Positions 8,759 through 62,306 of a stretch of 64,000 bases of DNA are shown piece after piece (the stretch's first letter is position 1; every line of letters starts with the position of its first letter). The notes under the pieces are model-generated. The model saw nothing but the letters and a program-made list of their open reading frames with translations, was not told the DNA's origin and did not search any database. The position numbers and the translations under genes were made by a program. The DNA is from Alphaproteobacteria bacterium. Lineage in GTDB: Bacteria; Pseudomonadota; Alphaproteobacteria; SP197. The stretch spans positions 1 to 64,000 of the forward strand of contig OZ245842.1 in assembly GCA_965228895.1 (NCBI GenBank), read 5' to 3'.

Positions 8759-8897
8759 TAGAGCAGATCCCAGTTTGTTGGCATCGCTTCGCGATGAAAC
8801 CGAAATGGGTGAATCTGCTCTAACGCAATGATGTAGAGCGGATTCACACGACGTGATCGAACCGTCGGTGGTTCGATCACGTCGTGATCCGCTCTAG
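8759..8897. repeat. Composite palindromic element: two ~64-bp TAGAGC hairpin modules in inverted orientation
   Basis: 8759-8822 TAGAGCAGATC...GTGAATCTGCTCTA; 11-bp spacer; 8834-8897 TAGAGCGGATTCAC...GATCCGCTCTAG with a perfect 16-bp inner stem. Confidence 0.85.
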
Positions 8898-8953
8898 GAT
8901 GCGCCCAACGCCGAGCCGGCGTCCAGCGTGAATGAACTGGGGAGTTTTGGTGA

Positions 8954-9697
8954 ATGATAGGTTTTCTGGACGGCAAGTTCGCCCTGGTGACGGGCGCCGC
9001 CTCTGGCATCGGCCAGGCGATCGCGGTGGCGTTCGCGGGTGAGGGCGCGACGGTAGCGCTGGCGGATATCGGCGACACCGCCGAGACCGAACGACGGATC
9101 GCCGAAGCCGGTGGCAAGACCCTGGCGGTCCCGATGGATGTCAGCGACGAACAATCAGTCATCGATGGCGTGGCCGGCGCGGTCAAAACTTTGGGCAGTT
9201 TGGACATCTCTGTCGCCAGCGCCGGGATCGCGCTCGACGTGCCGCTGCTGGAAACGACCCGTGCCGAGTGGGACCGCGTCATCGGCATCAACCTGACCGG
9301 TGTTTTCTTCACCGGCCGCGAGTCGATCCGCGCCATGAGCGATCACGGCCAAGGCGGGCGCATCATCGTGATCTCGTCCGACCACGCGTTCTTTAGTTGG
9401 AAGGAGCGTTCAGCCTATTGTGCGTCGAAAGCCGGCGTGCTGGGCCTGGTGCGTGTCTGGGCCGAAGAGTTCGCACCCGACATTCTGGTCAACGCCATCT
9501 GCCCGGGACCGGTCGAAACGCCCTTGCTGATGGACGAGATGACGCCGGAGATCATGGCGCGCGAGACCGACATTCCGCTGCGCCGTCTCGGCCAGCCGGA
9601 CGAAATCGCCGCCGCGGCGTTGGCGCTTGCCGGCAAGGCAGGCAGCTTCACCACCGGTCAGGCCTGGGGCGTCAACGGCGGCTCCGCGATGCGGTGA
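8954..9697 (+). CDS. SDR family NAD(P)-dependent oxidoreductase
   Basis: TGAASGIG, YCASK catalytic motif, VNAICPG. Confidence 0.93.
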   Translation: MIGFLDGKFALVTGAASGIGQAIAVAFAGEGATVALADIGDTAETERRIAEAGGKTLAVPMDVSDEQSVIDGVAGAVKTLGSLDISVASAGIALDVPLLETTRAEWDRVIGINLTGVFFTGRESIRAMSDHGQGGRIIVISSDHAFFSWKERSAYCASKAGVLGLVRVWAEEFAPDILVNAICPGPVETPLLMDEMTPEIMARETDIPLRRLGQPDEIAAAALALAGKAGSFTTGQAWGVNGGSAMR

Positions 9698-9728
9698 GGG
9701 GTGTCTTTCGATGGTTGCGCCATAGCCA

Positions 9729-9791
9729 GCCCCCTCCCCCTCCCGACCACCCATGGCAGCATCCTCCGGGTGGTCGAGAGGGAGAGTGGGC
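9729..9791. repeat. CCCTCCC...GGGAGAG-type intergenic palindrome (REP-like)
   Basis: CCCTCCCGACCACCC...GGGTGGTCGAGAGGG hairpin between convergent genes; similar motifs at 31085-31240. Confidence 0.5.
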
Positions 9792-9814
9792 TGGTGCAGC
9801 AGCAGACAAGTCCC

Positions 9815-11056
9815 TCAACGATTAGCCATTTCAAGAAGCGCATCGGCCAGCACGCGGGCGCCGGCGGCGAGGTCGGCGGCGTCCGCCATCTCGGCTTCGT
9901 TGTGGCTGATGCCTTTTGCGCAGGGCACGAAGATCATGCCGGTCGGGCACAGCGGCACCATCAGCTTGGCGTCATGGTCGGCGCCGGACGACATGCGCAT
10001 GGCCGGGATGTCGAGCTCGCCGGCGATGCGTTCGATGCGGGCGATAACCGTCTCGTCGAAGTCGGCGGGCGCGCCGACATGACGTTCGTTGACCTCGACA
10101 CCGCACGGGCCTGCGTTGGCTTCACAAATCTCGCCGATGCGCGCGACCGTCGCGGCGAAATAGGCGGCATCGGGATGGCGGAAATCGATGGTGAAACGGA
10201 CCTCGCCGGGAATCGTGTTGGGTGAGCCCGGATAGGCCTGGAAGCGGCCGATGGTGAAGCGCACGGTATCGTCGGGGTCCGCCGTTTCCTTGTAGAGCGC
10301 GTCGACCATGGCCATCGCCGAGCGGAAGGCGTCGCGCCGCTGGCTGAGCGGCACGGTGCCGGCATGGCCGTCCTCGCCGGTCACGATAACCTCGAACGAG
10401 CTGCCGCCCTGGATCCCGGTGACGGCGCCGACGGTCAGGCCTTCGGCCTCCAGGCGCGGGCCCTGCTCGATATGGGTCTCGATATAGCCGGCGACGGGAA
10501 TGCCGGGTGCACGGTGTACGGCATCGGGTGTCATGGCGATGGTGCGGGCGAGGTCGTCGCGCATCACCGAGCCGTCAGGCGCGGTGTTGTCGAGGAACTC
10601 GTCGATGCCGTGTTTGCCGGAAAACACCATGCTGCCCGTGCAGCCGGGCGCATAACGGCAGCCTTCCTCGTTGGTCCAGACGACCGCTTCGATCGGACGT
10701 TTATGGTCGATGCCCGCGTCGTCGAGCGCCTCCAGCACCTCGAAGGCGGAGAGCACGCCATAGATGCCGTCGAAATTGCCGCCGGCCGGCTGGGTGTCCA
10801 GGTGGCTGCCCGACAGGATCGCCGGCGCACCAGCCTCGGTGCCGTTGCGACGGACAAAAAGATTGGCGGCGTCGTCGACATAGAGGTCGAAACCGCGCGC
10901 CGCCGCCCATCCGGCAAGCTCGGCGCGGGCCTGGCCATCCTCTTCGGTCAACGCCTGGCGGTTGACGCCGCCGCGCCCGGTCGCGCCGTATTTGGCGATC
11001 GCCATATGGCGGTCCCACAGGCGTTGCTGGTCGATGGCGCTACTGGCCCGGCTCAT
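9815..11056 (-). CDS. M20 family Zn-dependent amidohydrolase (N-carbamoyl-amino acid/allantoate amidohydrolase-like)
   Basis: GSHLDT..GGNFDG, WTNEEG, ETHIEQG, GHAGT, SGADHD, GISHN; GGGAGG RBS before MSRASS. Confidence 0.92.
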   Translation of the reverse strand: MSRASSAIDQQRLWDRHMAIAKYGATGRGGVNRQALTEEDGQARAELAGWAAARGFDLYVDDAANLFVRRNGTEAGAPAILSGSHLDTQPAGGNFDGIYGVLSAFEVLEALDDAGIDHKRPIEAVVWTNEEGCRYAPGCTGSMVFSGKHGIDEFLDNTAPDGSVMRDDLARTIAMTPDAVHRAPGIPVAGYIETHIEQGPRLEAEGLTVGAVTGIQGGSSFEVIVTGEDGHAGTVPLSQRRDAFRSAMAMVDALYKETADPDDTVRFTIGRFQAYPGSPNTIPGEVRFTIDFRHPDAAYFAATVARIGEICEANAGPCGVEVNERHVGAPADFDETVIARIERIAGELDIPAMRMSSGADHDAKLMVPLCPTGMIFVPCAKGISHNEAEMADAADLAAGARVLADALLEMANR

Positions 11057-11127
11057 ACGTGTCCTCCCGATTGACGGCACCTCACGCGATGCCATGTAAT
11101 GGAGAGCGAATATTCATGGAGGCTCTC

Positions 11128-11883
11128 ATGGCGATCAAGGCTGTTGCCGGAACGTCAACCCGTTGGTCGGAAGCCGAGTGGCAGGCGCGCCTGGATCTTG
11201 CCGCCTGTTATCGTCTAGCCGACCGCTTCGGTTTCTCCGACATCATCTGGAATCACATCACCGCGAAAATCCCCGGCAGCGAGGGTCACTTCCTGCTCAA
11301 CCGCATGGGCCTTCGCTATGACGAGATCACGGCGTCCAACCTGATCAAGGTCGATGGCGAGGGCAATGTCCTGGAAGGCCCGGACGATGTCAACGTGACC
11401 GGCTTCATCATCCATAGCGCGATCCACCACGCGCGCCCCGATCTCAACGTCATCTTCCATACCCACGCGGAAGAAGCGCTTGCCGTGACCGCGCTGCACG
11501 AAGGCCTGATGCCGCTGACCCAGGACGCGGCGATGTTATGGAAGAACGTCGCCTATCACGAATGGGAAGGCCTGTCGGTCGACATGGACGAGCGGCAGCG
11601 TCTGGCCAAGAGCCTGGGCGACAAGAAGGTCATGATCATGCGCAACCACGGCCTCATCACCTGCGGTGCGACAGCGGGCGAAGCGTTCATTCTGATGCAT
11701 TACCTGAACCGCGCCTGCAAGGTGCAGCTCCAGGCGCTCGCGACGGGCCGCAAGCTACACATGCCCGACCCCAAGGTCTGGCAGCAGGCGGCGCAGCAAT
11801 ACAGCCACTTCGAGCCCGGCGTCCATGAATGGCCAGCCCTGGTGCGTCTCTTAGACAAGGAAGACCCGTCGTACCGCGATTGA
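11128..11883 (+). CDS. Class II aldolase/adducin family protein
   Basis: RLDLAACYR, NHIT, IHSAIH, HTH, MRNHG Zn-ligand motifs; GGAGG RBS. Confidence 0.92.
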   Translation: MAIKAVAGTSTRWSEAEWQARLDLAACYRLADRFGFSDIIWNHITAKIPGSEGHFLLNRMGLRYDEITASNLIKVDGEGNVLEGPDDVNVTGFIIHSAIHHARPDLNVIFHTHAEEALAVTALHEGLMPLTQDAAMLWKNVAYHEWEGLSVDMDERQRLAKSLGDKKVMIMRNHGLITCGATAGEAFILMHYLNRACKVQLQALATGRKLHMPDPKVWQQAAQQYSHFEPGVHEWPALVRLLDKEDPSYRD

Positions 11884-11886
11884 GGA

Positions 11887-12885
11887 TCAATCCCTGAACG
11901 GCGTCAGGCGCTTGTAGTGGAGCGCCAGATAGAGCGACACTTCGATCTCGCCGACACCGGCGAGTTGGCGGATATCGTCGTCGAGCACGCGGCGCAGCTC
12001 GTCGGGTGAGACACAGGCGACTTCTGCGAAGATGTCGACCCGGCCGGTGCAAATCGTGACATAGGTGATGTGCGGCAGATCGGAAAGCGCGCCCGCGACG
12101 TCGATGACCTTGTGGCCGGACGCTACGCGAACGGCCACCCATGCCATGGTCGTATAGGCAAAGCTGATCGGGTTGACGATCGCGATGACGTTCATGACGC
12201 CGGCGGCCGTCATCTCGTTGACCCGGTTGCGTACCTGGGTCTCCGAAACGCCGAGCGTGTCGGCAATGGATTGCAACGGCGCGCGGCCGTCGTCGCTCAA
12301 GGCGCGGACGATCTGGCGGTCGGTCTCGTTCAGTTGGCGCGGGCGAACACCCGCTTCCTGTGGACTTTTGCGGCGCGCTGCGTCGAAGCGTGCGAGCTGA
12401 TAGTGCAGGGAAAGATAGGGAAAACACTCGATGGTGCGGATGCCGTCGATCGGCCCTATCTGTTGTTCGATGATGTCCTGGAGTGCCGCCATGTCGCGGC
12501 ATATGACCTCGGCGAACAGAGTATAGCGGCCGGCGGCGACGACGACGTAGTCGACCGCCTCGATGGCGACCAGGGAGAGCGCGATGTCGGAGGCCGGCAC
12601 GGCCGGGTCGGTCGTGATGCCGATCAAAGCCGCGGCGTTGTAACCCAGAGCAATCGGATTGGTGACGGCTGTTATCTGGATGACACCCCGGTCTAGAAGA
12701 TCGCGGACCCGATGTCTGACGGTCCGTTCCGCGATGCCGACTTCGCGCGCAATGTTGGCGTAGGAGCGCCGGCCGTCCTCCTGCAACAGCAGGACGATCG
12801 CGCGGTCGGTCTCGCTGAGGTCGGAAACGTGGGCCAGAAACTGACCGGCGCCGTCGCTGGGCAGGTTGAGTGCGGCGTCAGCCAT
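11887..12885 (-). CDS. Lrp/AsnC family regulator with two tandem HTH+RAM units
   Basis: Two repeats: LSETDRAIVLLLQEDGRRSY... and LNETDRQIVRALSDDGRAPL..., each followed by a RAM-like domain. Confidence 0.88.
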   Translation of the reverse strand: MADAALNLPSDGAGQFLAHVSDLSETDRAIVLLLQEDGRRSYANIAREVGIAERTVRHRVRDLLDRGVIQITAVTNPIALGYNAAALIGITTDPAVPASDIALSLVAIEAVDYVVVAAGRYTLFAEVICRDMAALQDIIEQQIGPIDGIRTIECFPYLSLHYQLARFDAARRKSPQEAGVRPRQLNETDRQIVRALSDDGRAPLQSIADTLGVSETQVRNRVNEMTAAGVMNVIAIVNPISFAYTTMAWVAVRVASGHKVIDVAGALSDLPHITYVTICTGRVDIFAEVACVSPDELRRVLDDDIRQLAGVGEIEVSLYLALHYKRLTPFRD

Positions 12886-13741: not shown

Positions 13742-13809
13742 GGATCCCCCAAGTCGTCTGCTGTGCAACGTCACGTTGTCATTCGCGGCTACCATTACCG
13801 TAGTTTCGG

Positions 13810-23537: not shown

Positions 23538-23657
23538 GCCGGATGCCCCGCACTACGACCGCGACAGTATGTCGGTTCCGAAGACGGGTGGACAGCGCCA
23601 AGAGCGAAGGAAAGGAAGGCCCCGAACGGAGTCTCCCTACCTCAATCAGCCCCGGAT

Positions 23658-23797
23658 CTAGAGCGGATCATGGTTAGATGGAACCGCTTGACGGTCCCAT
23701 CTAACCATGTGAATCCGCTCATTATCAATGAGTAGAGCAGATTCACCTGTTTTGATGTCATCGCGAAGCGATTCCATCAAAACAGGATCTGCTCTAG
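23658..23797. repeat. Composite TAGAGC hairpin element, reverse orientation relative to 8759-8897
   Basis: CTAGAGCGGATC-16bp stem-GTGAATCCGCTC...TAGAGCAGATTCAC...GATCTGCTCTAG; the right CTAG contains the SBP stop. Confidence 0.85.
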
Positions 23798-25386
23798 GCA
23801 GGCCTGAAGTATCTGAGCATCTGATTCTGGCCGTCGGGGCCAAGCGCCGGCACGATGTTCTTGTTGTTGTAAATGTAGGCGTTGACGCCGTGGGTCAGGA
23901 ACAGATAAGCGCCTGACTCCTCCATCAGATCCTGCATGCGTTCGTAGATCGCCTGACGTTTCTCAGGATCGGTCTCCCGCAGGCCTTCGGTGTTGAGTTC
24001 CTCGAACTCCGTGCTGTCAAAGCGCTCCCAGTTCCAGATGCCGATCTGGCCAGGCGTGAACCATTCCGTCGCCCAACTGGGATCCGGCGCCATGGTATAG
24101 CGCATCAAGGTCAACTGGTTGGTCATCACCGATGGGCTGTCGGCGAAACCCAGCGTCCAGAACGTACCGGAATCGTGTGGCGTTACCGATACTTCCAGGC
24201 CGATTTCCGAGAGGTTCGCGGCAATGACCTGCGCCGCCGATTGGGACCACGTCACGTTCTGGGCGGCGATGTCGAGCTGGGTGCCTTCGTGGCCGCCTTC
24301 TTCGACGAGGCGTCGGGCTTCATCGAGATCCATGCCATAGAGACGCGCATCGCGATGGCCGATCAGGCCGGGCGCGATGATGCCAGTCGATGCCTCGGCC
24401 TGGCCAAAGAAGGCCGCTTCAATGACCTCGTCGACATTAACGGCAAGTTGGATCGCGCGGCGCAGATTGATGTCCTGGAGCGGACCCGGCGAACCGTCGT
24501 CCAACTGCTGATCCATGTTCATGCCGAGCCAGATATAGGCGTTCGGCGGGAACGTCAGCAAGGTCGTGTCGGCCGGCATGTCGGCTTCGATATCGGGAAT
24601 CGAGCTCGCCTCGACACGGGTGATGTCGACCTCGCCGGCTGCATAGGCGATCTCGCCCGCCTTGTCGTCCTCGATCGGGAGGACCATCAGCTCGTCGAAC
24701 GGCGCTCTTTCGAATGGCCAGTTCGGGTTCGGTTCCAGGATCATGCGCTGTTTGGGCACCCATTCGCGAATGCGGTAGGGGCCGTTATAGGCCGGCATTT
24801 CGGTGGTCCATCGTTTCTCCGGCAACGCCTCGGTTGCCGCCTTGCACACGATGTCGCCGGAACCATAGGGCAGCGAACTGTTCCAAAGCGCGGCGAACGG
24901 CTCCTTCAGATGAATCACACCGGTATAGTCGTCGATGATCTCGACTTCCTTCAGCGACTGCCAGTCGACCACATAGTCGGCCTCTAGTCCGGTGATGCCG
25001 GCGATGCGCTCAAAGGAATACTTCACGTCCTCGGTCGTCGTCTCGCCCCAGCCGTCGGACCACGGCACGCCCTTCTTGATCGTGAACTTGATGGTCAGGG
25101 GGTCGATTTCATCGATTTCCTCGGCGAACTCCAGCTCCAGTTCCCAATTGGGATCATTGGGTTTGAAATGGACCAGCCGGTTCAATGTGCAGTGCATGAT
25201 GTCGTCATCCGCACCGGATAACCGGAAGGCAGGATCCAGAACCTGAATGTCTGCATAAGTTCTGATGCGTGTCGACGTACTCTGGGCGCTGGCAGCTTGC
25301 GGCAGGCCTGCGGCGGCAACCGCGCCGGCTGCGGCACCGGTCTTCAGAACCTGGCGCCGCTCCAGGTTGAACCATTCGATTGTCAT
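23794..25386 (-). CDS. ABC transporter substrate-binding protein, family 5 (Opp/Dpp-like), Tat-exported
   Basis: ERRQVLK Tat motif, LDP, EDVKYSFER, GPY, LRRAI..A. Confidence 0.92.
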   Translation of the reverse strand: MTIEWFNLERRQVLKTGAAAGAVAAAGLPQAASAQSTSTRIRTYADIQVLDPAFRLSGADDDIMHCTLNRLVHFKPNDPNWELELEFAEEIDEIDPLTIKFTIKKGVPWSDGWGETTTEDVKYSFERIAGITGLEADYVVDWQSLKEVEIIDDYTGVIHLKEPFAALWNSSLPYGSGDIVCKAATEALPEKRWTTEMPAYNGPYRIREWVPKQRMILEPNPNWPFERAPFDELMVLPIEDDKAGEIAYAAGEVDITRVEASSIPDIEADMPADTTLLTFPPNAYIWLGMNMDQQLDDGSPGPLQDINLRRAIQLAVNVDEVIEAAFFGQAEASTGIIAPGLIGHRDARLYGMDLDEARRLVEEGGHEGTQLDIAAQNVTWSQSAAQVIAANLSEIGLEVSVTPHDSGTFWTLGFADSPSVMTNQLTLMRYTMAPDPSWATEWFTPGQIGIWNWERFDSTEFEELNTEGLRETDPEKRQAIYERMQDLMEESGAYLFLTHGVNAYIYNNKNIVPALGPDGQNQMLRYFRPA

Positions 25387-27628: not shown

Positions 27629-29221
27629 ATGACTAGAAGTCATCTATCACGCCGTCATTTGATGCAGGCAACAGCCGGTTCGGTCGCGGCGGCCAGCTTT
27701 GTCGATGGTTTGCTCGATCCGACCAGCGCCTGGGCTCAGTCGGACAAGCCGCTTCGGATCCGCACCAACCGCGCGATCGTCTCGACCGATCCCGGCTACA
27801 TGGTCGGCGGTTTCGAGATGGTGCTGCAATTCGCCTGCCTGGCGCGCCTGGCGAGTTATACGGGCGGTGACGAATGGGGCTGGAAACCCAGCGAGTTCGT
27901 CAACTCGCTGGAGCAGGTTGACGCCCAGACCATCAGCTTCGAGCTGAAGCCCGGCATCATGTGGTACGACGGCACGACCGGCGACGAGATCGGCGAGCTG
28001 GATGCCGAGGACGTCAAGTATTCGCTTGAGCGCATGAAGGAGTCGGAGTGGAAGGACAAGGCCGTTGCGCTCGACAATGTCGAGGTGACGGGCACGCATT
28101 CGGGCATCATCCATCTCAGCCAGCCGTTCGCGCCGATCTGGTACACCTGGATTTGCGACGGCACCGGCACGATCGTCTCGAAAAAGGCGGTCGAGGCGGC
28201 CGGCGGCACCTATGACGGTATCTTCAACTTCTATTGCGGCTACTATCGCGTCTCCGAATGGGTGCAGAAACAGAGCTATACGCTGGAGCCGAATCCGCAC
28301 TGGACGGGCACACCGCCAGGCATCGCCGATGTCAAGTTCATCATCATCGATGATGAGAAAACGGCGGAGATCGCCTTCGAGGCGGGCGAGATCGACATCA
28401 CCCAGATCGCGATCGACGCCATTCCACGGCTTCAGGAAGATCCGCCGGAAGACGCCGTCGTCGAGGTCTTCTCAAGCACCCAGTGGTACTGGATGGGCAT
28501 GAACACAGACCATCCGAACCTGCAGGATATCCGTGTCCGCCAAGCTATTCAGCACGCGGTCGACGTCGACACCATCATCCAGGGCGCCTGGGCAGGCGTG
28601 CCGACAAGGGCCTATGGCATTGTGCCGCCGGGCCTGATCGGTTTTCGCGAGACCGGCAAGTATGCAACACCGGATCCCGACAAGGCGCGCGAGTTGATTG
28701 CCGAGGCCGGCGCCGAGGGCACCAAGATCACGTTGAAGACGATCAACCTGGCCGATCGCATGGCGGCCGCCCAGATCATCCAGGCCAATCTTGCCGATGT
28801 TGGATTGGAAGTCGAAATCGTGCCGATGGATGCCGGCCCGTTCTGGAATCTCGGTCTGGAGACCGAAGGCGAGGACTGGAAAGATCTGGAGATGTGGATC
28901 ATGCAGTACGGCGATTCGCCCGATCCCAGCCAGATGGCCCAGTGGTACATCTCCGACCAAGTCGGCGTGTGGAACTGGGAACGCTGGTCGGATCCTGAGT
29001 TCGACGAGCTGTTCGCGGCGGGCCTTGGCGAGACCGACGAGGGCAAACGCCACGACATGTATGTCAGGATGCAGGAGATCATGGAGGACACCGGCGCCTA
29101 TGTCTGGCTGATGTTCCCGCCGCTCGGCGTCATGTACCGCGACGATCTGGAACCGGTCATGCAACCCAACGGCTCTCTGTGGTATGTCGCGGAATTCAAG
29201 TGGAAGGACGAGTCGGCTTAG
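27629..29221 (+). CDS. ABC transporter substrate-binding protein, family 5, Tat-exported (tandem copy 1)
   Basis: LSRRHLM Tat motif, EDVKYSLER, VRQAI; GGAGG RBS. Confidence 0.92.
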   Translation: MTRSHLSRRHLMQATAGSVAAASFVDGLLDPTSAWAQSDKPLRIRTNRAIVSTDPGYMVGGFEMVLQFACLARLASYTGGDEWGWKPSEFVNSLEQVDAQTISFELKPGIMWYDGTTGDEIGELDAEDVKYSLERMKESEWKDKAVALDNVEVTGTHSGIIHLSQPFAPIWYTWICDGTGTIVSKKAVEAAGGTYDGIFNFYCGYYRVSEWVQKQSYTLEPNPHWTGTPPGIADVKFIIIDDEKTAEIAFEAGEIDITQIAIDAIPRLQEDPPEDAVVEVFSSTQWYWMGMNTDHPNLQDIRVRQAIQHAVDVDTIIQGAWAGVPTRAYGIVPPGLIGFRETGKYATPDPDKARELIAEAGAEGTKITLKTINLADRMAAAQIIQANLADVGLEVEIVPMDAGPFWNLGLETEGEDWKDLEMWIMQYGDSPDPSQMAQWYISDQVGVWNWERWSDPEFDELFAAGLGETDEGKRHDMYVRMQEIMEDTGAYVWLMFPPLGVMYRDDLEPVMQPNGSLWYVAEFKWKDESA

Positions 29222-29285: not shown

Positions 29286-29314
29286 GTGACGTGATTTGTG
29301 AAGCAGTTTCGCAA

Positions 29315-29355
29315 CTTGACGCGCTGCCCCAAAGACTGGGAGGATTTCGGACAAC
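29315..29355 (+). promoter_or_regulatory. Candidate promoter of SBP copy 2
   Basis: CTTGACG-N18-GAGGATTTCGGACAAC. Confidence 0.5.
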
Positions 29356-29401
29356 AGTCCAGTTTTCTTGTTGCTTAAAACACAATGTCTGGGAGGCATT
29401 C

Positions 29402-30997
29402 ATGAGCAAATTGAATCTGTCACGCCGTCGTCTGATGCAGACGACGGCCGGGTCTGTCGCGGCCGCCGGTTTTGTCGACGGCCTGCTCGACCCCAAAAGC
29501 GCCTGGGCGCAGTCGTCGAAGCAGCTGAGGGTCCGTAGCAACCGCGCCATTCTGTCGACCGATCCCGGCTACATGATCGGCGGCTTCGAAATGGTCCTGC
29601 AGTACGCCTGCCTGGCGCGCCTGGCCAAGTACACCAACAGCCCGGACGAATGGGGCTGGGAACCCAGCGAGTTCGTCACGTCGCTGGAGCAGGTCGATGC
29701 CCAGACGATCACCTTCGAACTGAAGCCGGGTATCATGTGGTACAACGGCACGACCCACGAAGAGATCGGCGAGCTGAACGCCGAAGACGTCAAGTATTCG
29801 CTGGAGCGCATGCAGGAGTCCGAGTGGAAGGACAAGGCTGTTGCGCTCGACCATGTCGAGGTAACGGGCACCCATGCCGGTACCATCCATCTCAATCAGC
29901 CGTTCGCGCCGATCTGGCTGACCTGGATCTGCGACGGCACAGGCACCATCGTCTCCAAGGTCGCGGTCGAAGCGGCCGGCGGCAAGTATGACGGAATCTT
30001 CGATTTCTACTGCGGCTACTACCGCGTCAAAGAGTGGGTGCAAAAGCAGAACTACACGCTGGAGCCGAACCCGAACTGGCCGGGCACGCCGCCGGGTATT
30101 GCCGACGTCAAGTTCATCATCATCGATGACGAGAAGACGGCGGAGATCGCGTTCGAGGCCGACGAGATCGACATTACCAACATTGCCGTCGATGCCATTC
30201 CGCGACTTCTGGAAGCACCGCCGGAAGGTGGCGTGGTCAAGGCGTTCTCCGGCACCCAGTGGTACTGGATGGGCATGAACACCGACCATCCGAACCTGCA
30301 GGATATCCGTGTCCGCCAGGCCATCCAGCACGCCATCGATGTTGAGACCATCATCCAGGGTGCCTGGGCCGGTGTCGGCACGCGCGCCCATGGTATCGTG
30401 CCGCCGGGCCTGATCGGTCACCGCACCGAAGGCAAGTTCTCGACACCCGATCCCGACAAGGCGCGTGAGCTGATTGCCGAGGCCGGCGCCGAAGGCACCA
30501 AGATCACGCTGAAGACGATCAACCTGGCCGACCGCATGGCGGCCGCCCAGATCATCCAGGCAAATCTGGCCGATGTCGGTTTGGAGGTTGAGGTCGTGCC
30601 GCTGGATGCCGGTCCGTTCTGGAACCTGGGCCTGGAATCGGAAGGCGACGATTGGCAGGATCTCGAGTTGTGGATCATGTCCTATTTGGATTCGCCCGAT
30701 CCCAGTCAGATGACCCAGTGGTACATCTCCGACCAGGTCGGCGTGTGGAACTGGGAACGCTGGTCCGATCCCGAGTTCGACGAACTGTTCGCGGCGGGCC
30801 TTGGCGAGACCGACGAAGGCAAACGCCACGACATCTATGTCAGGATGCAGGAAATCATGGAGGACACCGGCGCCTACGTCTTCCTGATGTTCCCGCCGAA
30901 CGGCGTCATGTACCGCGACACACTGGATCCGGTGATCACGCCGAACGGCTATATCTGGCAGATCCAGGAGTTCAAATGGAACGATGAGTCCGCCTAG
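29402..30997 (+). CDS. ABC transporter substrate-binding protein, family 5, Tat-exported (tandem copy 2)
   Basis: LSRRRLM; colinear and highly similar to 27629-29221; GGAGG RBS. Confidence 0.92.
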   Translation: MSKLNLSRRRLMQTTAGSVAAAGFVDGLLDPKSAWAQSSKQLRVRSNRAILSTDPGYMIGGFEMVLQYACLARLAKYTNSPDEWGWEPSEFVTSLEQVDAQTITFELKPGIMWYNGTTHEEIGELNAEDVKYSLERMQESEWKDKAVALDHVEVTGTHAGTIHLNQPFAPIWLTWICDGTGTIVSKVAVEAAGGKYDGIFDFYCGYYRVKEWVQKQNYTLEPNPNWPGTPPGIADVKFIIIDDEKTAEIAFEADEIDITNIAVDAIPRLLEAPPEGGVVKAFSGTQWYWMGMNTDHPNLQDIRVRQAIQHAIDVETIIQGAWAGVGTRAHGIVPPGLIGHRTEGKFSTPDPDKARELIAEAGAEGTKITLKTINLADRMAAAQIIQANLADVGLEVEVVPLDAGPFWNLGLESEGDDWQDLELWIMSYLDSPDPSQMTQWYISDQVGVWNWERWSDPEFDELFAAGLGETDEGKRHDIYVRMQEIMEDTGAYVFLMFPPNGVMYRDTLDPVITPNGYIWQIQEFKWNDESA

Positions 30998-34825: not shown

Positions 34826-36079
34826 ATGGGCAAGGGTGCGGGGATCATAGCTGCAATTGCGTTGGCTCTGCTGAGCATGCCGGCCGCCTCGTATGCGGAT
34901 GACGGTGAGGACTGGCGCAACCTCTACCGTGACGCGGTGCCGGTGCTGGATGTCCGCTACCGCTTCGAGTTTGTCGACCAGGCCGGATTTCCCAACAACG
35001 CCGAAGCCAACACGATCCGGACGCGGGCGGGTTTTGAGACCGGCTATGTCTATGGACTCGGCTTGGTCGCCGACGGTGAGTGGAACCAGGTTATCGGCGG
35101 TGAGCGGTTCAACGACACGATCAACGGCAAGACCCAGTTTCCGGTTGTCGCCGACCCTGAAGACCTGCAGATCAATCAGCTCTACCTCATCGCCGACAAC
35201 ACGATCGCGGACACGGTCCTGAAGCTCGGGCGCCAGCGGATCATCTGGGACAACGCACGGTTCGTCGGCAATGTCGGCTTCCGGCAGAACGAGCAGACGT
35301 TCGATGCCTTCCGCGGCAGCGTGTTTGTGCTCGACGACCTGGTGGTTGAGTACGTTTATTTCGACGAGGTCCACCGCATCTTCGGGCGGGACTCACCGGT
35401 TGGCAGTCTGGAACTCAGCAGTCATGGGTTCCGGGGTCAGTATACCGGGCTTGAGGCAGTAGCGATCACGCCCTTTGTCCTGTTGCTCGATTACGATGCG
35501 TCCGCCCAGGCCGGTCTCGACAGCCAGACCTATGGCGTGCTGGCGCAAGGCAGCCATGACCTGGACCAGGATTGGGGCCTCACTTACTTGGCCTCGCTCG
35601 CCTATCAGGCCGACTATGCCGACAACCCTGCCGGTTTCGGCCTGTGGTACTACCACGTGGCGCCGGGCCTCACCTATGACGGCGCCCGGTTCACAATCGG
35701 TTACGAGGTGTTGTCGGGCAACGGCACCAGCGCCTTTCAGACGCCCCTGGCGACACTGCACAAGTTCAACGGTTTGACCGACCGCTTCTTGACGACGCCG
35801 GCGAACGGTCTGCGCGACCTCTACGTGGCTGCCTCAAGTCCCTTGCCGGGCGACGGCCTGTTTTCCGGACTCAGTGTCGCCGGCGCCTACCACCAGTTTT
35901 GGGCTGAAGACAAGGGCACGCATTATGGCTCGGAATGGGACGCCGGGATCTTCAAGACGTTCGACCTGGATGGCAACGCGATCAAGCTGGGCGCCCAGTA
36001 TGCCGCCTATAGTGCCGACAATTTTTCCGTCGACACCGACAAGCTATGGCTGACGGTCCAGTTTCAACTCGGCCCCTAG
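34826..36079 (+). CDS. Outer-membrane beta-barrel protein, alginate export (AlgE)-like family
   Basis: Signal peptide, RYRFE.VDQ, GRQRI, FVGNVGFRQNEQTFD, FQTPLATLHKFNG, amphipathic C-terminal strand. Confidence 0.8.
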   Translation: MGKGAGIIAAIALALLSMPAASYADDGEDWRNLYRDAVPVLDVRYRFEFVDQAGFPNNAEANTIRTRAGFETGYVYGLGLVADGEWNQVIGGERFNDTINGKTQFPVVADPEDLQINQLYLIADNTIADTVLKLGRQRIIWDNARFVGNVGFRQNEQTFDAFRGSVFVLDDLVVEYVYFDEVHRIFGRDSPVGSLELSSHGFRGQYTGLEAVAITPFVLLLDYDASAQAGLDSQTYGVLAQGSHDLDQDWGLTYLASLAYQADYADNPAGFGLWYYHVAPGLTYDGARFTIGYEVLSGNGTSAFQTPLATLHKFNGLTDRFLTTPANGLRDLYVAASSPLPGDGLFSGLSVAGAYHQFWAEDKGTHYGSEWDAGIFKTFDLDGNAIKLGAQYAAYSADNFSVDTDKLWLTVQFQLGP

Positions 36080-36209
36080 AGCCAACCCCGTCTTGTTCGG
36101 GTTTCTCGGCGTATCCGCCTGCGATCCCATCGACATCCATAAGATGGAGTCGATTCTCCCATCGTGACGGCATCGCATAGCGATACAATCGAACTGGGAT
36201 CTGCTCTAG
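36076..36209. repeat. Degenerate composite TAGAGC element
   Basis: CTAGAGC...GCTCTAG ends; minus strand CTAGAGCAGATCCCAGTTCGATTGTATCGCTATGCGATG matches the module at 8759; left TAG is the porin stop. Confidence 0.7.
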
Positions 36210-48824: not shown

Positions 48825-49346
48825 TCAGATCACTTCGATGCTGGTCGCCAGCGGGCCACGATCGCCCATTCTCGACTCGACCCTTACACGCTGACGCGGC
48901 TGCAGCATTGGAATGCCCGCATGCTCCAAGACGCGCGCGGAAACGAACACATCACGGCTACCGTCGTCTGGCGTAATGAATCCGAAACCCTTCTGCATGT
49001 CGAAGAACTTCACCATGCCTTCGACCGTCGTTGCCGGCCCAAAGTCCTGTGGTTCGTGACGCCGAGGCGGCGGCGCCTGATCCTCCGTCGCGGTCGATAA
49101 ATCGATGCTGTAGATCTCGGCCACTTGCAGGCCGCGCTGGCCCTCGGTCACTTCGCAAACCACGGTCGCACCGTTCGGCAGGGAACGCTCACCCAGTCGC
49201 TCGACAACAGAGATATGCAGAAACGCATCGGATGTGCCGTCCGACAACTGCACAAATCCAAAACCCTTGGTTGGATTAAACCACTTGACGGTCGCCGATA
49301 CGCCGGCCTGGCCGCCACCGTACCGGCCCTCTAACTCATCTGACAT
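48825..49346 (-). CDS. Cold-shock protein with two CSD domains
   Basis: VKWFN..KGFGF..DAFLH and VKFFD..KGFGF..DVFV; AAGGAG RBS. Confidence 0.93.
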   Translation of the reverse strand: MSDELEGRYGGGQAGVSATVKWFNPTKGFGFVQLSDGTSDAFLHISVVERLGERSLPNGATVVCEVTEGQRGLQVAEIYSIDLSTATEDQAPPPRRHEPQDFGPATTVEGMVKFFDMQKGFGFITPDDGSRDVFVSARVLEHAGIPMLQPRQRVRVESRMGDRGPLATSIEVI

Positions 49347-52485: not shown

Positions 52486-54024
52486 TCAGTCGGCGGCCCC
52501 GCCTTCTTCCTTGCGCTCGGCGATGAAGGCGTCGAGTTCCTCGAGGACGGCCGGGTCGAGCGGCGGCTCTTCGTATTCAGCGAGGAGCTGTTTCCAGATC
52601 TGGTGGGCGCGGGTCTGGGCGTCCGGCGAACCGGCTTCGCGCCAGCTCTCATAGTTGCGCCAGTCCGACAGGATGGGATTGTAGAACGCGGTCTCGTAGC
52701 GATCGAGCGTGTGCTGGGTGCCGAAGAAATGACCGCCGGGCCCGACATCGCGCATCGCCTCGATGCCGATGGTGTCGTCAGAGATCTCGATCGGGTTCAG
52801 CATCTCCGCCATGCCCTGAATCATCTCCGCATCCAGGATCAGTTTTTCGAAACTCGCCACCAGCCCGCCTTCGAGCCAGCCCGCACCCTGATAGAGCAGG
52901 TTCGCCTGGCCGGTGACCGCCGCCCATAACGACATCTCCGACTCATAGGCCGCCTGCGCATCCACCGTGTTAGACGCGTTGACGTTGGACGTGCGGTAGG
53001 GAATGGCGTAGCGGCGCGCGAGCTGGCAGCCGGCCAGGACCGCCTTGGCGTATTCCGGCGTGCCGAAGGCCGGCGCGCCCGACTTCATGTCGACGTTCGA
53101 CGTAAAGCCGCCATAGATCACCGGCGTGCCCGGCCGGATGCACTGGGCGATGGTCATGACGCCGAGCGCTTCGGCGTTTTGCTGGGCAAGCGCGCCGGCG
53201 ATGGTCGCCGGGCTCATGGCGCCGGCGAGCGTGAACGGCGTGATCGTCACCGGCTGGCCGCAGCGGACATAAGCCGTCATGCCCTCGGCCATCGGGATAT
53301 CGAACCTGAGCGGCGAGTTGGTGTTGATGATCGTGATTGCCGCCGGTTTTTCGGCCAGCGTCTCGCGATCGCATTGCAGCGCGATGCAGGTCGCCTCGAT
53401 GGCGTCTTCGGCGCGCTCGGCACCAAGCGCATAACCCTGCCACGTCTTGTCGGTCAGCGTGATCATGGCGCGGTACATGTCCAGGTGGCGTGTCGCCGCC
53501 GGCAGATCCTGCGGCTCGACTGCGCCGCCGCCGTCCTGGTGCACGATGTTCAGGCTCTGCAGGACACGGGTGAAGTTGCACATGTCCTCGAAGTTGCCGA
53601 TGCGCCGGCCGCCTTCCAGATCGCTGACATAGGGCGGTCCGCCGACGCCGGTGACGACCATGCGGTTGCCGCCCAGCGTCACGTTGTGGTCGGGGTTGCG
53701 CGCGTGCAGCGTGAACTCTGACGGCGCCAGTGCGATCTTTTCTTCGATCATGTCGCGGCTGAACTTGACGAGCTCGCTCGTGACGTCAGCGCCTTCGCGC
53801 GTCAGCATGTCGCGCGTCGGCGCGTGCAGCACCTCCATGCCGATCGATTCAAGAATGGTCAGCGAGGCCTGGTGCAGACGTTCGACCTGTTCGTCATGCA
53901 GGATATCGAACGGGCGATAGGGATTGACGATCTCACGCCATGGCAGTTGATGGATCGTGCCGGCCTTGCGTTCGGACCCGCCCGCGCCGCGCCGTCCGCG
54001 TCGTCCCGATCGTTCGCGTGCCAT
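52486..54024 (-). CDS. Trimethylamine methyltransferase (MttB) family protein, non-pyrrolysine
   Basis: NTNSPL, PFTLAGAMSP, DMKSGAPAFGTPE, DAQAAYES, AGWLEGGL, VGPGGHF; no internal TAG. Confidence 0.92.
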   Translation of the reverse strand: MARERSGRRGRRGAGGSERKAGTIHQLPWREIVNPYRPFDILHDEQVERLHQASLTILESIGMEVLHAPTRDMLTREGADVTSELVKFSRDMIEEKIALAPSEFTLHARNPDHNVTLGGNRMVVTGVGGPPYVSDLEGGRRIGNFEDMCNFTRVLQSLNIVHQDGGGAVEPQDLPAATRHLDMYRAMITLTDKTWQGYALGAERAEDAIEATCIALQCDRETLAEKPAAITIINTNSPLRFDIPMAEGMTAYVRCGQPVTITPFTLAGAMSPATIAGALAQQNAEALGVMTIAQCIRPGTPVIYGGFTSNVDMKSGAPAFGTPEYAKAVLAGCQLARRYAIPYRTSNVNASNTVDAQAAYESEMSLWAAVTGQANLLYQGAGWLEGGLVASFEKLILDAEMIQGMAEMLNPIEISDDTIGIEAMRDVGPGGHFFGTQHTLDRYETAFYNPILSDWRNYESWREAGSPDAQTRAHQIWKQLLAEYEEPPLDPAVLEELDAFIAERKEEGGAAD

Positions 54025-57660: not shown

Positions 57661-57774
57661 GGTCGGTCTTTTCCCCGGTTCGCGCCGGGCATAGTGGTGT
57701 GCCCAGAGGGGCGCAGGCAAGGTGCTTGCGCACAAGGCGATGACGGCTAGTCTCCGACCAAACGGAGGAACGCC

Positions 57775-58911: not shown

Positions 58912-60390
58912 CTAATAGTCATCTCCGTTCAGACTCTTGATAACCGACGCCTGCCATTCCTCCAGGTTGCCCAGTAACCTCGAGGCGATTTCCTCCCTTT
59001 CCTCAACCAGGTTGGTTGTTTCCAGGGGATCTTCCTCCAGATTGTACAACTCCATGTTCGGTTCACGGGGCCACACAACATCATACCAAGCCGACTGCTC
59101 TATTCTGTGTAACTTCCATGGCCAATCCAAAATCGCAGCGTGGCCTTCAAAAAAGTCTTCTTCATATTTTTTTTGGATGACGCCCGCATCGAGGTACAGG
59201 AAGTCTTCCAAGTTCTCGCTCACATTATTGTCTCTCGCCACCGACATGATCTCGTCGCTGTTCATTCGGATTCCTGGAACGTCGTAGAACTTCCAGAACT
59301 TTAGCGAGGGCGGCGAGCCGGCGTTTTGATGATTTATGCTGTCCAGCAGCGAGATGCCGTCCAAGGGGCGAGACTGGGGGTATGCAATATCTGCGGCATC
59401 AAGAAGTGTCGGCAAAACATCTGATGTGCTAGCGGGGGTTTCAATGACTTGTGGATGTGGGAATCCTTTTGGCCATTCAAGTACGGATGGGACCCTTATG
59501 CCCCCCTCATAGATGCTTCCTTTGCTCTCCCGGCCTCCGTTCAATCCGATGTCGGGCAGTCCGCCATTATCTCCAAGATACCAAACAATCGTGTTCTCCT
59601 TTAGCGAGCTATCTTCAAGATAGGCGCGCAATGTTCCGACCGTCCTGTCTATCGCTGTTGTTTCTGCATAAAAATTCGCCACGTCATCGGGGAACTCTGA
59701 ATACAAGAGTCTATCCTCGTCTTTGGCAAGATGCGGCTTATGCGGATTTCCAAACCAAATGGCGATGAAAAACGGCTCATCTTTTTCCTCTCGGCTTTCT
59801 AAGAAATCGATGGCCAGATCAACAATGATTTCCGAGCCTTCTCCATTGGTTTCCACGACTTCGCCTTTGTGGCTAAGCAGCGGAGAAAAGTCGAAAAAGT
59901 TGGGTGCTGAAATCCACTCCTGGAATCCAGACGCGCCCGGATTAACGGGACTCTCTGACAACACCGATCCGACGTGCCACTTTCCGAAGTGAGCGGTCGT
60001 GTACCCGTGCTCGCTCAATACTTCGGGGAGCGTAAGTTCTTGGGGTCTAAGGGAGTGACCCCAGGTAAAAGCGCCCATACGGTTCGGATGCCGGCCCGTT
60101 AACAGACTTGCTCTTGTTGGGGTGCAGACATGTCCGGCGGCATAAAACCGATCAAAACGCACGCCTTCAGATGCCATCACATCCAGGTTTGGAGTCTGCA
60201 ATACCGGATGGCCGTTGTACCCAACATCGCCCCACCCCTGATCATCGGACAAGAGCACAATGATGTTGGGTCTCTCGGAAAACTCGTCAGCATTGAGTGA
60301 ATTCACGCATGACAAAAGTACGAGGACAAATACCACTCGTGCCGAGTTTCGGATCAAGAATGACGACATTCTTAACATCGCGCGCTCCAT
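58912..60390 (-). CDS. Exported Cys-type arylsulfatase-like enzyme, low GC
   Basis: Signal peptide, PNII...DD.GWGD, CTPTRASLLTGR, GKWH, PH.PH, DNG, KG.IYEGG.RVP, ELYNL..DP.E. Confidence 0.9.
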   Translation of the reverse strand: MERAMLRMSSFLIRNSARVVFVLVLLSCVNSLNADEFSERPNIIVLLSDDQGWGDVGYNGHPVLQTPNLDVMASEGVRFDRFYAAGHVCTPTRASLLTGRHPNRMGAFTWGHSLRPQELTLPEVLSEHGYTTAHFGKWHVGSVLSESPVNPGASGFQEWISAPNFFDFSPLLSHKGEVVETNGEGSEIIVDLAIDFLESREEKDEPFFIAIWFGNPHKPHLAKDEDRLLYSEFPDDVANFYAETTAIDRTVGTLRAYLEDSSLKENTIVWYLGDNGGLPDIGLNGGRESKGSIYEGGIRVPSVLEWPKGFPHPQVIETPASTSDVLPTLLDAADIAYPQSRPLDGISLLDSINHQNAGSPPSLKFWKFYDVPGIRMNSDEIMSVARDNNVSENLEDFLYLDAGVIQKKYEEDFFEGHAAILDWPWKLHRIEQSAWYDVVWPREPNMELYNLEEDPLETTNLVEEREEIASRLLGNLEEWQASVIKSLNGDDY

Positions 60391-60821
60391 TAGGGGGAGT
60401 TATCGAACTGCCTGACAGATAACAATCTACAATTGAATGTAGACTGTGGCTTGCAGGCAAAGCAAGATCGTTGCGGCGATACACGCAACCCTTGACCGCC
60501 TCTCTACGGGTTTGTTGAAACTCGAAGGCGACTTTCTTGCTTTCATGGCAGCATATGCGCGAGCGCCGTCATGACAGCGCGGGGACGGAATCCAAGGCGG
60601 GGTACCTAAATCCGTGCCCGGACGGCCCACCGTGGCCTCCTGACGCCTTCGCTAGAGCCTTTGCCGCTCTCTCGCTGCGTGAACATGACCCGTTCTCGGC
60701 TCCAAGACCTGCGGCTCAGCACCTCGCGGACAGGAGGATGGAGGGCGACCAACATGCCCAATTGTCTAGAGTGGTCCGCCCTGTCGGCGAAGCGGCAGTG
60801 GCGCGCGAGAGGAGTCGCCGG

Positions 60822-61727
60822 CTAGCTGGCCTTCGCCTCGGCCACCACCCAATCACGAAAGGCGCGAACATTCGCGCGCTCCAGCGCGGCCGGCAGGCAA
60901 ACGAAATGCACCTTGAAGTCGAGCGGCAGGCTGATGTCGAACGGGCGGACGAGCCGGCCCGCGGTCATGTCGTCGCCCGCCGTTGAGTCGGTTGCCAGCG
61001 CAACGCCGCGGCCCATGATGGCGGCCTCAACAACCAGGCCGGCGCTATCAAAGTGAGGCCCGCGCTTGGCGTCGACATTGGTGACGCCGGCGGCTCTAAG
61101 CCACATTTCCCAATCCAGCGCCGGCCCGCCAACTGCCCAGCTGTCGTCGTGCAGCAACGTGTGGTGTTTTAGGTCGCCGGGCTCGTGAAGCGGGTGATCG
61201 CCGGTCAAGAACGCGGGGCTGCACACCGGAAAGAGATCGCTCTCCAGTAGAACCTCGGCGTGAAGTCCCGGGTAAGGACCGCGGCCATAACGCAAAGCCA
61301 CGTCGACTCCATCCTTGGCGAAGTCGACCACCAGGTTGTTGGCGGAGATGTGCACATCGATCTCAGGATGAGCGTCCTGAAATCTACTGAGACGCGGTAA
61401 CAGCCACTTGGCTGCCACCGAAGGCGAAGCGCTCAAGATGAGCGCATGAGGGTCGTCGTCGGCGCCTAAACGCGTCATCGCGCGGTCAAGCGCGGCAAAG
61501 CCCTCGCTGACATCGGGCAGGATAAGGCGCCCGGCATCGGACAGGGTGAGGTTGCGGTTGTTGCGGATGAACAGCTGGCAATCCCACCGTTCCTCCAGCC
61601 CTTTGATCTGATGGCTGATCGCTGCCGGGGTGACGTGGAGTTCTTGCGCTGCCTTGCTGAAGCTCAGATGGCGCGCTGCCGCCTCAAACGCCCTGAGCGC
61701 GTTCAGCGGCAGTTGGGCAATCGTCAT
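60822..61727 (-). CDS. LysR family regulator (GcvA-like)
   Basis: LPLNALRAFEAAARHLSF..AA.EL.VT.AAISHQIK.LE, WLLPRL..F...HP. Confidence 0.93.
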   Translation of the reverse strand: MTIAQLPLNALRAFEAAARHLSFSKAAQELHVTPAAISHQIKGLEERWDCQLFIRNNRNLTLSDAGRLILPDVSEGFAALDRAMTRLGADDDPHALILSASPSVAAKWLLPRLSRFQDAHPEIDVHISANNLVVDFAKDGVDVALRYGRGPYPGLHAEVLLESDLFPVCSPAFLTGDHPLHEPGDLKHHTLLHDDSWAVGGPALDWEMWLRAAGVTNVDAKRGPHFDSAGLVVEAAIMGRGVALATDSTAGDDMTAGRLVRPFDISLPLDFKVHFVCLPAALERANVRAFRDWVVAEAKAS

Positions 61728-61743
61728 GACAATCCTGACCGCG

Positions 61744-61785
61744 TTAGATTTCCTAAAGCATAGGCTGAGAACAAATCGTTCGTCC
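61744..61785 (+). promoter_or_regulatory. LysR operator (T-N11-A) plus downstream site
   Basis: TTAGATTTCCTAA-N9-TGAGAACAAATCGTT. Confidence 0.6.
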
Positions 61786-61859
61786 AAGCTGCTCAAGAAC
61801 CCTATTTCTGGTGACGAGCGCCGACGCCGCGGCATCTTGACCGGAAAAGGAAAAATAAC

Positions 61860-62228
61860 ATGGATACGTCATTGGATCGAGATCTGTTGCGTCACGTTTC
61901 AGGTCCGGCCCCCCTGGGCGGCGAGCCGGTTTTGCGTTACGACGGTCCACGCCCAAGCGGTCAGCGATTTGGCGTTGGTCCGCGGATTGCGGATCTGGCG
62001 CGGCGTCTGTGGCGCGCCATCCGGGTTGCCCAGGAAACCAGGGCGACGGCGCGAGCGCTAGCGGTTCTCGACAACCGGGCCCTCAGCGATATCGGCGTTA
62101 GCCGAGGCTCGATTCCCGCGGTCGCGCAACAGGCGGCCTCAGCCCATCTGGCGGTCGCAGGCTTGGCGTGGACATCGGCTGGCAGCGCGCGTGCGGAGAA
62201 CGACAACCGGGCGCATCGCGCCGCGTAG
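61860..62228 (+). CDS. DUF1127 domain-containing protein
   Basis: T.RAL..LD.RALSDIGVSR..I core; divergent from the LysR; AAGGA RBS. Confidence 0.85.
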   Translation: MDTSLDRDLLRHVSGPAPLGGEPVLRYDGPRPSGQRFGVGPRIADLARRLWRAIRVAQETRATARALAVLDNRALSDIGVSRGSIPAVAQQAASAHLAVAGLAWTSAGSARAENDNRAHRAA

Positions 62229-62242
62229 GGCTGGTCGAGCCA

Positions 62243-62306
62243 CTAGAGCGGGTCGTGGTCAGGTGGAACCGCGCCGGTTCCACCTGACCACGTGAACTTG
62301 CTCTAG
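62243..62306. repeat. Single 64-bp TAGAGC hairpin module
   Basis: CTAGAGCGGGTC-GTGGTCAGGTGGAACC-GCGCC-GGTTCCACCTGACCAC-GTGAACTTGCTCTAG; right CTAG contains the LysR stop. Confidence 0.85.

Follow-up and report, generated by a model that had tools for sequence, protein, structure and literature searches.

The 64,000-nucleotide stretch analyzed here, the window (positions 1 to 64,000, forward strand, of contig OZ245842.1 in the alphaproteobacterial assembly GCA_965228895.1), carries copies of a dispersed, intergenic, noncoding repeat whose unit is a heterodimer of about 139 bp, in which two unlike hairpin modules stand inverted around a conserved linker. The original prediction, made from the letters of the window, had taken the 64-bp module as the unit. 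In this respect it has to be revised, as the inverted pairs in the window are the standard unit of the family and not chance neighbors. The stems covary strongly, and structure, not sequence, is maintained. Three properties were absent from the original prediction: the heterodimer with its linker, GANTC sites at a 3-nucleotide (nt) asymmetry between module ends, and termini that double as stop codons. Overall, we consider it slightly better than an even bet (a probability of roughly 0.55) that the repeat is a non-autonomous transposable element, moved in trans via its conserved ends, with hairpin formation needed for its spread.

Architecture and covariation of the heterodimer

Relatives were sought in 185,579 species genomes with the pattern TAGAGCRGATY-N36-48-RATCYGCTCTA. 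This pattern demands perfect termini, and the TA at pattern-matched ends follows from the pattern itself. At least 116 stretches from at least about 57 assemblies were recovered, with the family itself in at least about 50, which bears out the earlier claim of a large and dispersed family. Four assemblies among the matches listed hold unrelated or different palindromes, namely those of Lysobacter, Roseburia, an Oxalobacteraceae metagenome-assembled genome (MAG), and Noviherbaspirillum. The loci from the scan (given L numbers below) match the window only in the elements and not in the flanks.

Scan loci and window together gave 124 distinct pattern matches, 103 of which retain the GATC / GTGAATC asymmetry between the two ends of a module. 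When the GTGAATC side was set to the right, its flank nearly always consisted of 11 A/T-rich nt, after which a further TAGA... terminus began. A second, inverted half was present in 67 of the 94 asymmetric modules with enough flank, and 64 of these 67 dimers are 137 to 140 bp long. They are bordered by C on the left (52/67) and G on the right (56/67). The outer termini TAGAGCrGATC / GATCyGCTCTA, allowing up to two mismatches, were likewise found in 67 of 94 cases and form terminal inverted repeats. In the resulting layout, the left half, preceded by C, reads TA-GAGCrGATC-hairpin-GTGAATCyGCTC-TA and leads into the 11-nt A/T-rich linker; the right half reads TA-GAGCrGATTCAC-hairpin-GATCyGCTC-TA and is followed by G. 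The halves are unlike, in that exactly one carries a GGAATCGC...GCGATCC cap (A-type, the other being G-type) in 46 of 63 distinct dimers, and with the capped half placed first the linker consensus is ACTnTTTGATG. Modules range from 61 to 65 nt, TAG is preceded by C in 81 of 103 modules and by G in 6, and the elements have no coding capacity.

Other arrangements of the modules also occur. Solo modules, such as that at 62244-62305 of the window, keep the C...G flanks and are what would remain if a dimer underwent deletion between its directly repeated termini. At L053:1729-2064, five alternating modules form a tandem array (A-type reversed, G-type, linker, and so on) with a period of about 136 bp, where the junctions alternate between the 11-nt linker and a single shared TA (GCTC-TA-GATC). 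Symmetric palindromes of 61 nt that have lost the 3 extra bases and GANTC were observed at L033:2001-2061, L050:1104-1164, L066:2001-2061, and L107:301-361.

Covariation was judged in a 98-sequence alignment by pair counts against shuffled and slid controls. Within the 12-pair helix just inside the termini, one pair of which is fixed by the pattern, 11 pairs show two-sided changes. Pairing holds in 85.9% of cells of this helix and in 89.1% over the whole 26-pair structure, compared to 25 to 42% in the slid control, in which the partner column was moved by 1 to 3 positions; the observed covariation score was reached by none of 500 shuffles. The earlier claim that structure is kept over sequence therefore withstands the larger alignment, and the 16-nt arms on which it rested (6 and 3 differences between copies, with 16/16, 15/16, and 16/16 pairing) had been read correctly. 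At the terminal R/Y pair, A-T (60) and G-C (59) are found alongside A-C (4) and G-T (1; n = 124). The partner halves, whose termini are not fixed by the pattern, vary in the same compensatory manner at terminal pair 5 (G-C 40, T-A 18, C-G 5; n = 65) and pair 7 (G-C 32, A-T 21, C-G 8; n = 65), while pair 1 is T-A in 42 of 65 and pair 2 is A-T in 55 of 65. TAGA-C--AT is invariant at the base, and so are the 3 extra bases, the linker, and the cap.

The original prediction had also offered a structured RNA as one explanation. For 27 elements that follow a co-directional gene, sense and antisense RNA differed in folding by a mean of -1.2 ± 3.8 kcal/mol (15 sense, 10 antisense), and thus no strand bias speaks for a role as RNA. 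These results are compatible with a structure formed by the DNA itself, as a cruciform or as a single strand, or with an RNA effect that operates in either direction.

With the 3 extra bases, GATC becomes GATTC, or GAATC when the opposite strand is read, and thereby matches GANTC, the sequence that the CcrM methylase recognizes. In all, 168 such sites were counted in 63 distinct dimers, compared to 33.7 ± 5.3 in shuffled sequences, or about three per dimer, and their positions are fixed: one at each inner terminus and one in the A-type cap. In the part that the pattern does not fix, at least one GANTC was counted in 33 of 49 modules of the A-type and in 5 of 47 of the G-type. The consensus for integration host factor (IHF) is WATCAANNNNTTR, and dimer centers match it with at most one mismatch in 19 of 63 cases against 1.4 expected, 17 of the 19 in one register. 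Both the GANTC and the IHF-like sites are motif matches and are to be taken as predicted sites only.

Signs of mobility, stop codons, and competing explanations

Over the inner 39 nt, the identity of same-type modules is 0.89 for 99 pairs within genomes and 0.52 for 673 pairs between genomes, each genome having its own homogeneous variant. An all-against-all comparison of loci yielded a single orthologous pair, L012 and L074, whose common recA and alaS flanks are 76 to 80% identical. In L012, the dimer (L012:2001-2139) abuts the recA stop codon and supplies it; in L074, the dimer (L074:2001-2140) lies about 100 bp further on, past a terminator-like hairpin at about 2188-2222. The recA-alaS dimers of these two loci are independent insertions. 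Flanking genes are of the housekeeping kind (argG, murJ, infC, rpsD, carA, and gatB, from Pfam matches to the flank open reading frames [ORFs]). Spacers that hold elements are tandem in 27 cases, convergent in 12, and divergent in 9, which is roughly what chance would give, so the elements are not 3'-end signals as such.

Element termini frequently coincide with stop codons. A coding-like frame abuts 38 of 141 outer termini, and the TAG of the terminus is in frame in 28 of them, the two remaining frames accounting for 1 and 9. When the 97 ends that have 600 nt or more of flank are considered, a gene ends at distance 0 in 14 cases and at 1 to 10 nt in 1. The stop codon is shared with the element at 19 of 51 adjoining gene 3' ends, and in L009, L034, and L060 a single dimer provides the stops of both convergent neighbors. 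We propose that insertion at TA, with G as the first base of the element, converts a stop codon TAA or TAG to TAG, so that the protein stays the same; the TAG recreated on insertion would explain why termini so often serve as stop codons. Alternatively, the same pattern could come from selection among insertions that truncate a gene by few codons.

These observations can be accommodated by a transposase, supplied in trans, that would recognize the conserved termini and insert the element at TA, preferably within CTAG. Formation of a hairpin or cruciform would be required for propagation; if so, only lineages that keep pairing would spread. Both the GANTC sites in the inner termini and the linker, with its likeness to an IHF site, may serve to gate the reaction or to help it along. 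Three features point to a TA-duplicating DDE enzyme: flanks of the form C-TA...TA-G, junctions at which copies share one TA, and the way termini coincide with stop codons. The insertion sequence (IS) family IS630 has CTAG as its target; in the IS427 group of IS5, TA is duplicated at YTAR and the ends start with GAG. An IS630-family copy in B. anthropi pOANT01 starts with TAAAGCGTGTC, which is like the family terminus at 8 of 11 positions, a likeness that we treat as a lead only. The repeat is also small, noncoding, and present in many dispersed copies, as expected for a MITE, a miniature transposable element with inverted repeats.

Searches for the enzyme itself were conducted on the window and on the flanks of the scan loci. 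In the window, 10 ORFs examined by Pfam and 47 examined by NCBIfam include no transposase, in agreement with the original prediction. In the flanks, 226 of 229 coding-like ORFs were scanned by Pfam (150 + 76, the second batch at E ≤ 1e-15, with 3 duplicate L068 ORFs left out). The only transposase-like ORFs among them are L076:1128-1934, L065:3670-3960, and L010:3-599 (two IS3-type integrase cores and one DDE_Tnp_1_4), none of which is bounded by element termini within the flanks available. A gene for a YccV-like hemimethylated-DNA-binding protein was observed 1.1 kb from an element (L057:3246-3635, minus strand), probably by coincidence.

Several points weigh against a transposable element moved in trans. 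No IS630, IS5, or Y1 transposase was found among the 226 flank ORFs, and neither these nor the window contain a full-length IS with the same ends; the transposase or REP-associated tyrosine transposase (RAYT) flanked by such ends that the original prediction had proposed to look for was equally absent from both. The proposed comparison of orthologous loci for empty sites came down to the one orthologous pair, both members of which are filled; as no empty site was present among the loci compared, we only infer the TA duplication, and the C...G could belong to the element rather than to its target. The termini are conserved across many bacterial families and so are longer-lived than is usual for a MITE, which fits a domesticated partner better. 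Because the search pattern required perfect termini, it favored young copies, and the within-genome identity is somewhat inflated. Finally, the copies in the window itself are older (A-type identity 0.74).

A rather unlikely alternative, though one with several points in its favor, is an element akin to repetitive extragenic palindromes (REPs) and REPINs, in which a single-copy HUH tyrosine transposase (a RAYT or an IS200/IS605-type enzyme) acts on single-stranded hairpins and makes no target duplication. TAGAGC with its preceding C would then correspond to the GT(A/G)G head of a REP. Inverted doublets with a short spacer, an alternating array like that of a bacterial interspersed mosaic element (BIME), structure that is retained while sequence drifts, and termini conserved over great phylogenetic distance all agree with such a mechanism, and some of the REP heads given in Table 1 of PMC2817692 are followed by AGC or GAGCGGATTCA, near the family terminus. 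The modules, however, are 61 to 65 nt long, compared to the 20 to 40 nt stated there for REPs, and their TAGAGC head pairs with the opposite end of the module, in contrast to the REP head, which the same source describes as unpaired (PMC2817692). The base preceding TAG is predominantly C, with G in only 6 of 103 modules, no Y1 transposase is encoded by the ORFs of the window or by the 226 flank ORFs, and PMC2817692 states that, in 2010, its authors found no RAYT outside the gamma and beta classes. The shared-TA junctions and CTAG flanks fit a DDE enzyme better.

Somewhat less probable again is a host cis-acting element kept by selection and not by transposition, whether a CcrM/GANTC-dependent or IHF-bound chromosomal site or a hairpin in the 3' untranslated region that stabilizes or processes mRNA. 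Such a role is favored by the excess of GANTC at three fixed positions and of IHF-consensus matches in the linkers; moreover, many copies start at a stop codon and so must be co-transcribed. Against this, the homogeneous variants specific to each genome and the independent insertions need copying and movement. The spacer counts show no 3'-end preference, sense and antisense RNA fold equally well, and a consensus scan around the dimer at 23659-23796 of the window detected neither a T-run terminator nor a sigma-70-like promoter. A cellular role and mobility are compatible and not mutually exclusive.

Copies in the window

The hairpin skeleton predicted at five loci was found at all of them. Matches to TAGAGCRGATY with at most one mismatch number 13 in the window (62% G+C), where 2.3 ± 1.7 are expected and none of 100 shuffles reached 13. 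R1, a covariance model derived from 98 members of the family that include five from the window itself, detected six modules at four loci, to which one clear remnant is added; beyond the six modules, R1 gave no match in the window at E < 0.5. Five of the modules are well kept, with R1 scores of 63.8 to 79.8 bits (E of 1e-19 to 1e-24) and folding energies of -30.3 to -49.6 kcal/mol (z of -6.1 to -9.8), and none of 200 shuffles was equally stable.

Dimer 1 lies between divergent genes for a PhyH-like protein and a short-chain dehydrogenase. Its left half is an A-type module with an ATCGC-TTC-GCGAT cap (8759..8822, plus strand; -30.3 kcal/mol, z = -6.1; 63.8 bits), its linker is ACGCAATGATG (8823..8833, plus strand; 11 nt, family consensus ACTnTTTGATG), and its right half is a G-type module (8834..8896, minus strand; -47.5 kcal/mol, z = -9.4; 72.1 bits). 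A pair of GANTC sites, GAATC at 8811 and GATTC at 8841, brackets the linker (8811..8845). Dimer 2 has the opposite order. It begins with a G-type module (23659..23722, plus strand; -41.0 kcal/mol, z = -9.1; 70.0 bits) whose 3' terminus is damaged, reading GCTCAT instead of GCTCTA, and continues through a linker of 10 nt as read (23723..23732, plus strand; R1 ends the module 2 nt further, at 23659-23724) to an A-type module (23733..23796, minus strand; -36.9 kcal/mol, z = -9.0; 79.8 bits). GANTC occurs at 23711 and 23740 and, in the cap, at 23770. The A-type copies of the window are 0.74 identical. GANTC density in the window is 14.9 per kb within elements and 1.86 per kb overall.

The remaining copies are single or decayed. 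A solo G-type module flanked by C...G occupies 62244..62305 (plus strand; -49.6 kcal/mol, z = -9.8; 66.7 bits) and has lost its GANTC site. Of the decayed pair in the original prediction, the right half stood, being a decayed A-type module at 36145..36208 (minus strand; z = -1.9; 31.7 bits, E = 5e-8), while the left half, a possible decayed G-type half at 36077..36144 (plus strand), is marginal, as its score was reached by 10 of 300 shuffles and it has no R1 match. The remnant that had been placed at 7773-7802 is a real fragment that corresponds to the final 28 nt of an A-type module of the 8759 type in reverse orientation (7775..7802, plus strand; alignment score of 36 against 15.3 ± 3.2, not equaled in any of 300 shuffles).

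Four genes in the window end in the TAG of an element. The stop codon of the PhyH-like gene (7800-8726) is the TAG of the remnant at 7800-7802 (minus strand), that of a family-5 solute-binding protein gene (SBP_bac_5, 23794-25386) is the TAG of the A-type module of dimer 2 at 23794-23796 (minus strand), and that of a LysR-family gene (62303-63211) is the TAG of the solo module at 62303-62305 (minus strand). The ORF at 34826-36079 stops at the first TAG of the possible decayed half, 36077-36079.

That the modules are chance palindromes or an assembly artifact deserves next to no credence, since nothing beyond the weak left half at 36077-36144 speaks for it and it is refuted by the excess of termini over shuffles, the folding z values, the R1 scores, the relatives in at least 116 stretches elsewhere, and the covariation.

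Other genes in the window include two further family-5 solute-binding protein genes, at 27629-29221 and 29291-30997, which are paralogous to the one at 23794-25386 and share with each other stretches of 78 to 88% nucleotide identity (repeat families D1 and D2). The gene at 52489-54024 (minus strand) encodes an MttB-superfamily methyltransferase that scores 311 bits against the 525-bit cut-off of the pyrrolysine trimethylamine enzyme; its product is probably a non-pyrrolysine relative of the sort common in marine alphaproteobacteria. A 173-amino-acid ORF at 48828-49346 (minus strand) has tandem cold-shock domains, with two stretches matching CspE/CspA models.

Hosts, similar repeats, and significance

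Hosts among the matches listed are mostly of the Kiloniellales/Rhodospirillales type, and the host range is a lower bound. They comprise Pelagibius, Denitrobaculum, Kiloniellaceae, Thalassobaculum and other Thalassobaculaceae, Aquibaculum, Reyranellaceae, and MAGs labeled Rhodospirillales, Rhodospirillaceae, or Alphaproteobacteria, together with one MAG each of Hyphomicrobiales, Rhodobacterales, Azospirillaceae, and Acetobacteraceae. The closest copies among the matches listed are in MAG JANQGO01, at 86 to 90% identity over 139 bp. The window, with its 62% G+C, probably also stems from a marine member of these alphaproteobacteria. Rhizobiaceae and Brucellaceae labels do not occur among the matches listed, which is no evidence of absence from these groups. 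R1 detected no member in plasmid stretches of S. meliloti (300 kb of pSymB), B. anthropi (100 kb of pOANT01), and P. zucineum (50 kb of a plasmid); because the pSymB and pOANT01 stretches contain no short dispersed repeats of any kind, this result says little, if anything, about RIME elements. The sole weak R1 match there was a lone 20-nt palindrome, TAGAGCGGA..TCCGCTGTA, at L121:25674-25693 (pSymB 325674-325693; 14.8 bits).

A BLAST search of dimer 1 against PLSDB plasmids gave no match, and positions 1-25000 of the window matched plasmids in a single gene fragment of 107 bp. Rfam at its gathering score gave no match over the window, and a relaxed Rfam search around dimer 2 returned only noise below threshold, the best at 18 bits against a cut-off of 100: microRNA-like hairpins and the Brucella small RNA (sRNA) CI153 at 23591-23733 of the window (minus strand; 14.3 bits, with a cut-off of 137 and E = 0.29), a match judged to be probably chance. 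The part aligned to CI153 is the G-type hairpin, and the sRNA might overlap a Brucella palindromic repeat. When four 14-nt termini were searched for in a collection of papers, no relevant paper of that collection matched, only one unrelated primer. Hairpins of other sequence with (C)TAGAGCG...CGCTCTA(G) ends were observed in betaproteobacteria, two of them within a 170-bp stretch in the Noviherbaspirillum MAG (L113:300-470), and one likewise in the Oxalobacteraceae MAG (L109:301-366). Given these hairpins, the terminus may be common well beyond the family.

The closest repeats in print are the CcrM-associated intergenic repeats (CIR elements), reportedly described by Chen and Shapiro in 2003. 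In Caulobacter, Brucella, and other alphaproteobacteria, CIR elements are about 110 bp long and consist of two long inverted repeats, which fold independently into arms, and a linker; they have conserved GANTC sites, one near a terminal loop, and TA termini, are intergenic and without ORFs, and are reviewed as having no known transposase (PMC2229807). Our family, which like them falls in the range of about 100 to 140 bp, shows every one of these features of architecture, a likeness by description. It differs in exact length (about 139 versus about 110 bp) and in its hosts of the Kiloniellales/Rhodospirillales type. The account of CIR elements in the review makes no mention of stop-codon sharing or CTAG flanks (PMC2229807), and R1 gave no match in 50 kb of a Caulobacterales plasmid.

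The Correia elements of Neisseria (CREE/NEMIS) offer a second comparison, with a TA target, a length of 104 to 157 bp, a central IHF site in the long form, and hairpin-forming ends (PMC2649163, PMC2229807). The published Correia pattern TATAG[CT]GGATTAAC (PMC2649163) agrees with the inner terminus of the family, TAGAGCGGATTCAC, at 12 of 14 positions. The two share the TA, the size, and the central IHF site, and Correia elements are likewise without a known transposase. They are betaproteobacterial, however, and their 26-bp repeats pair across the element, whereas each half of our dimer forms its own hairpin; their core is conserved, whereas our stem covaries, and no similarity was seen beyond the 14 nt. 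Membership in the Correia family was rejected, as the interior is unrelated and variable.

An IHF motif is also present in the linker of the E. coli BIME known as RIP. BIME-1/RIP and BIME-2 resemble the family in having two unlike palindromes inverted around a linker and in forming alternating arrays (PMC2817692). Their REP units measure 20 to 40 nt, leave the GT(A/G)G head unpaired, and are associated with RAYTs, in contrast to the fully paired 64-nt modules described here. RIME elements are also laid out as two palindromes. RIME1 and RIME2 of Rhizobium and Bru-RS1 and Bru-RS2 of Brucella, compared by description only, are alphaproteobacterial intergenic palindromic mosaics of about 100 to 120 bp. 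Bru-RS1, a 103-bp palindromic repeat, is a site at which the TA-duplicating IS711 inserts at YTAR (PMC3163539). Judged by description, the family is probably an undescribed member of the known alphaproteobacterial palindromic mosaic repeats and not a new kind of system.

A broader proposal, which we regard as a long shot, would join this family, CIR/Bru-RS/RIME, Correia elements, and the CTAGAGCG...CGCTCTAG hairpins of L113 in one old superfamily with a TA-[G/T]AG[C/T]GGAT terminus and one transposase lineage. Its alphaproteobacterial branch would be CcrM gated via GANTC in the transposase-binding ends and shaped for harmless landing at stop codons. Dam methylation controls IS10 and IS50, and CcrM gating, if true, would parallel that control.

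The elements also matter for annotation, as they set the stop codon of many genes and can be mistaken for small RNAs. In draft assemblies, several copies lie no more than about 140 bases from the end of a contig (for example, L011, L025, L046, and L051). CIR, RIME, and Bru-RS repeats have been known for decades, and to our knowledge no enzyme or function has been tied to them. The present family provides a clean and deep data set, with at least about 50 genomes, genome-specific variants, and strong covariation, and its culturable, nonpathogenic hosts include Pelagibius litoralis, Denitrobaculum tricleocarpae, and Thalassobaculum litoreum. Three of its features stand out: the CTAG/TA flanks, the use of termini as stop codons, and the exact placement of methylation sites within the conserved ends.

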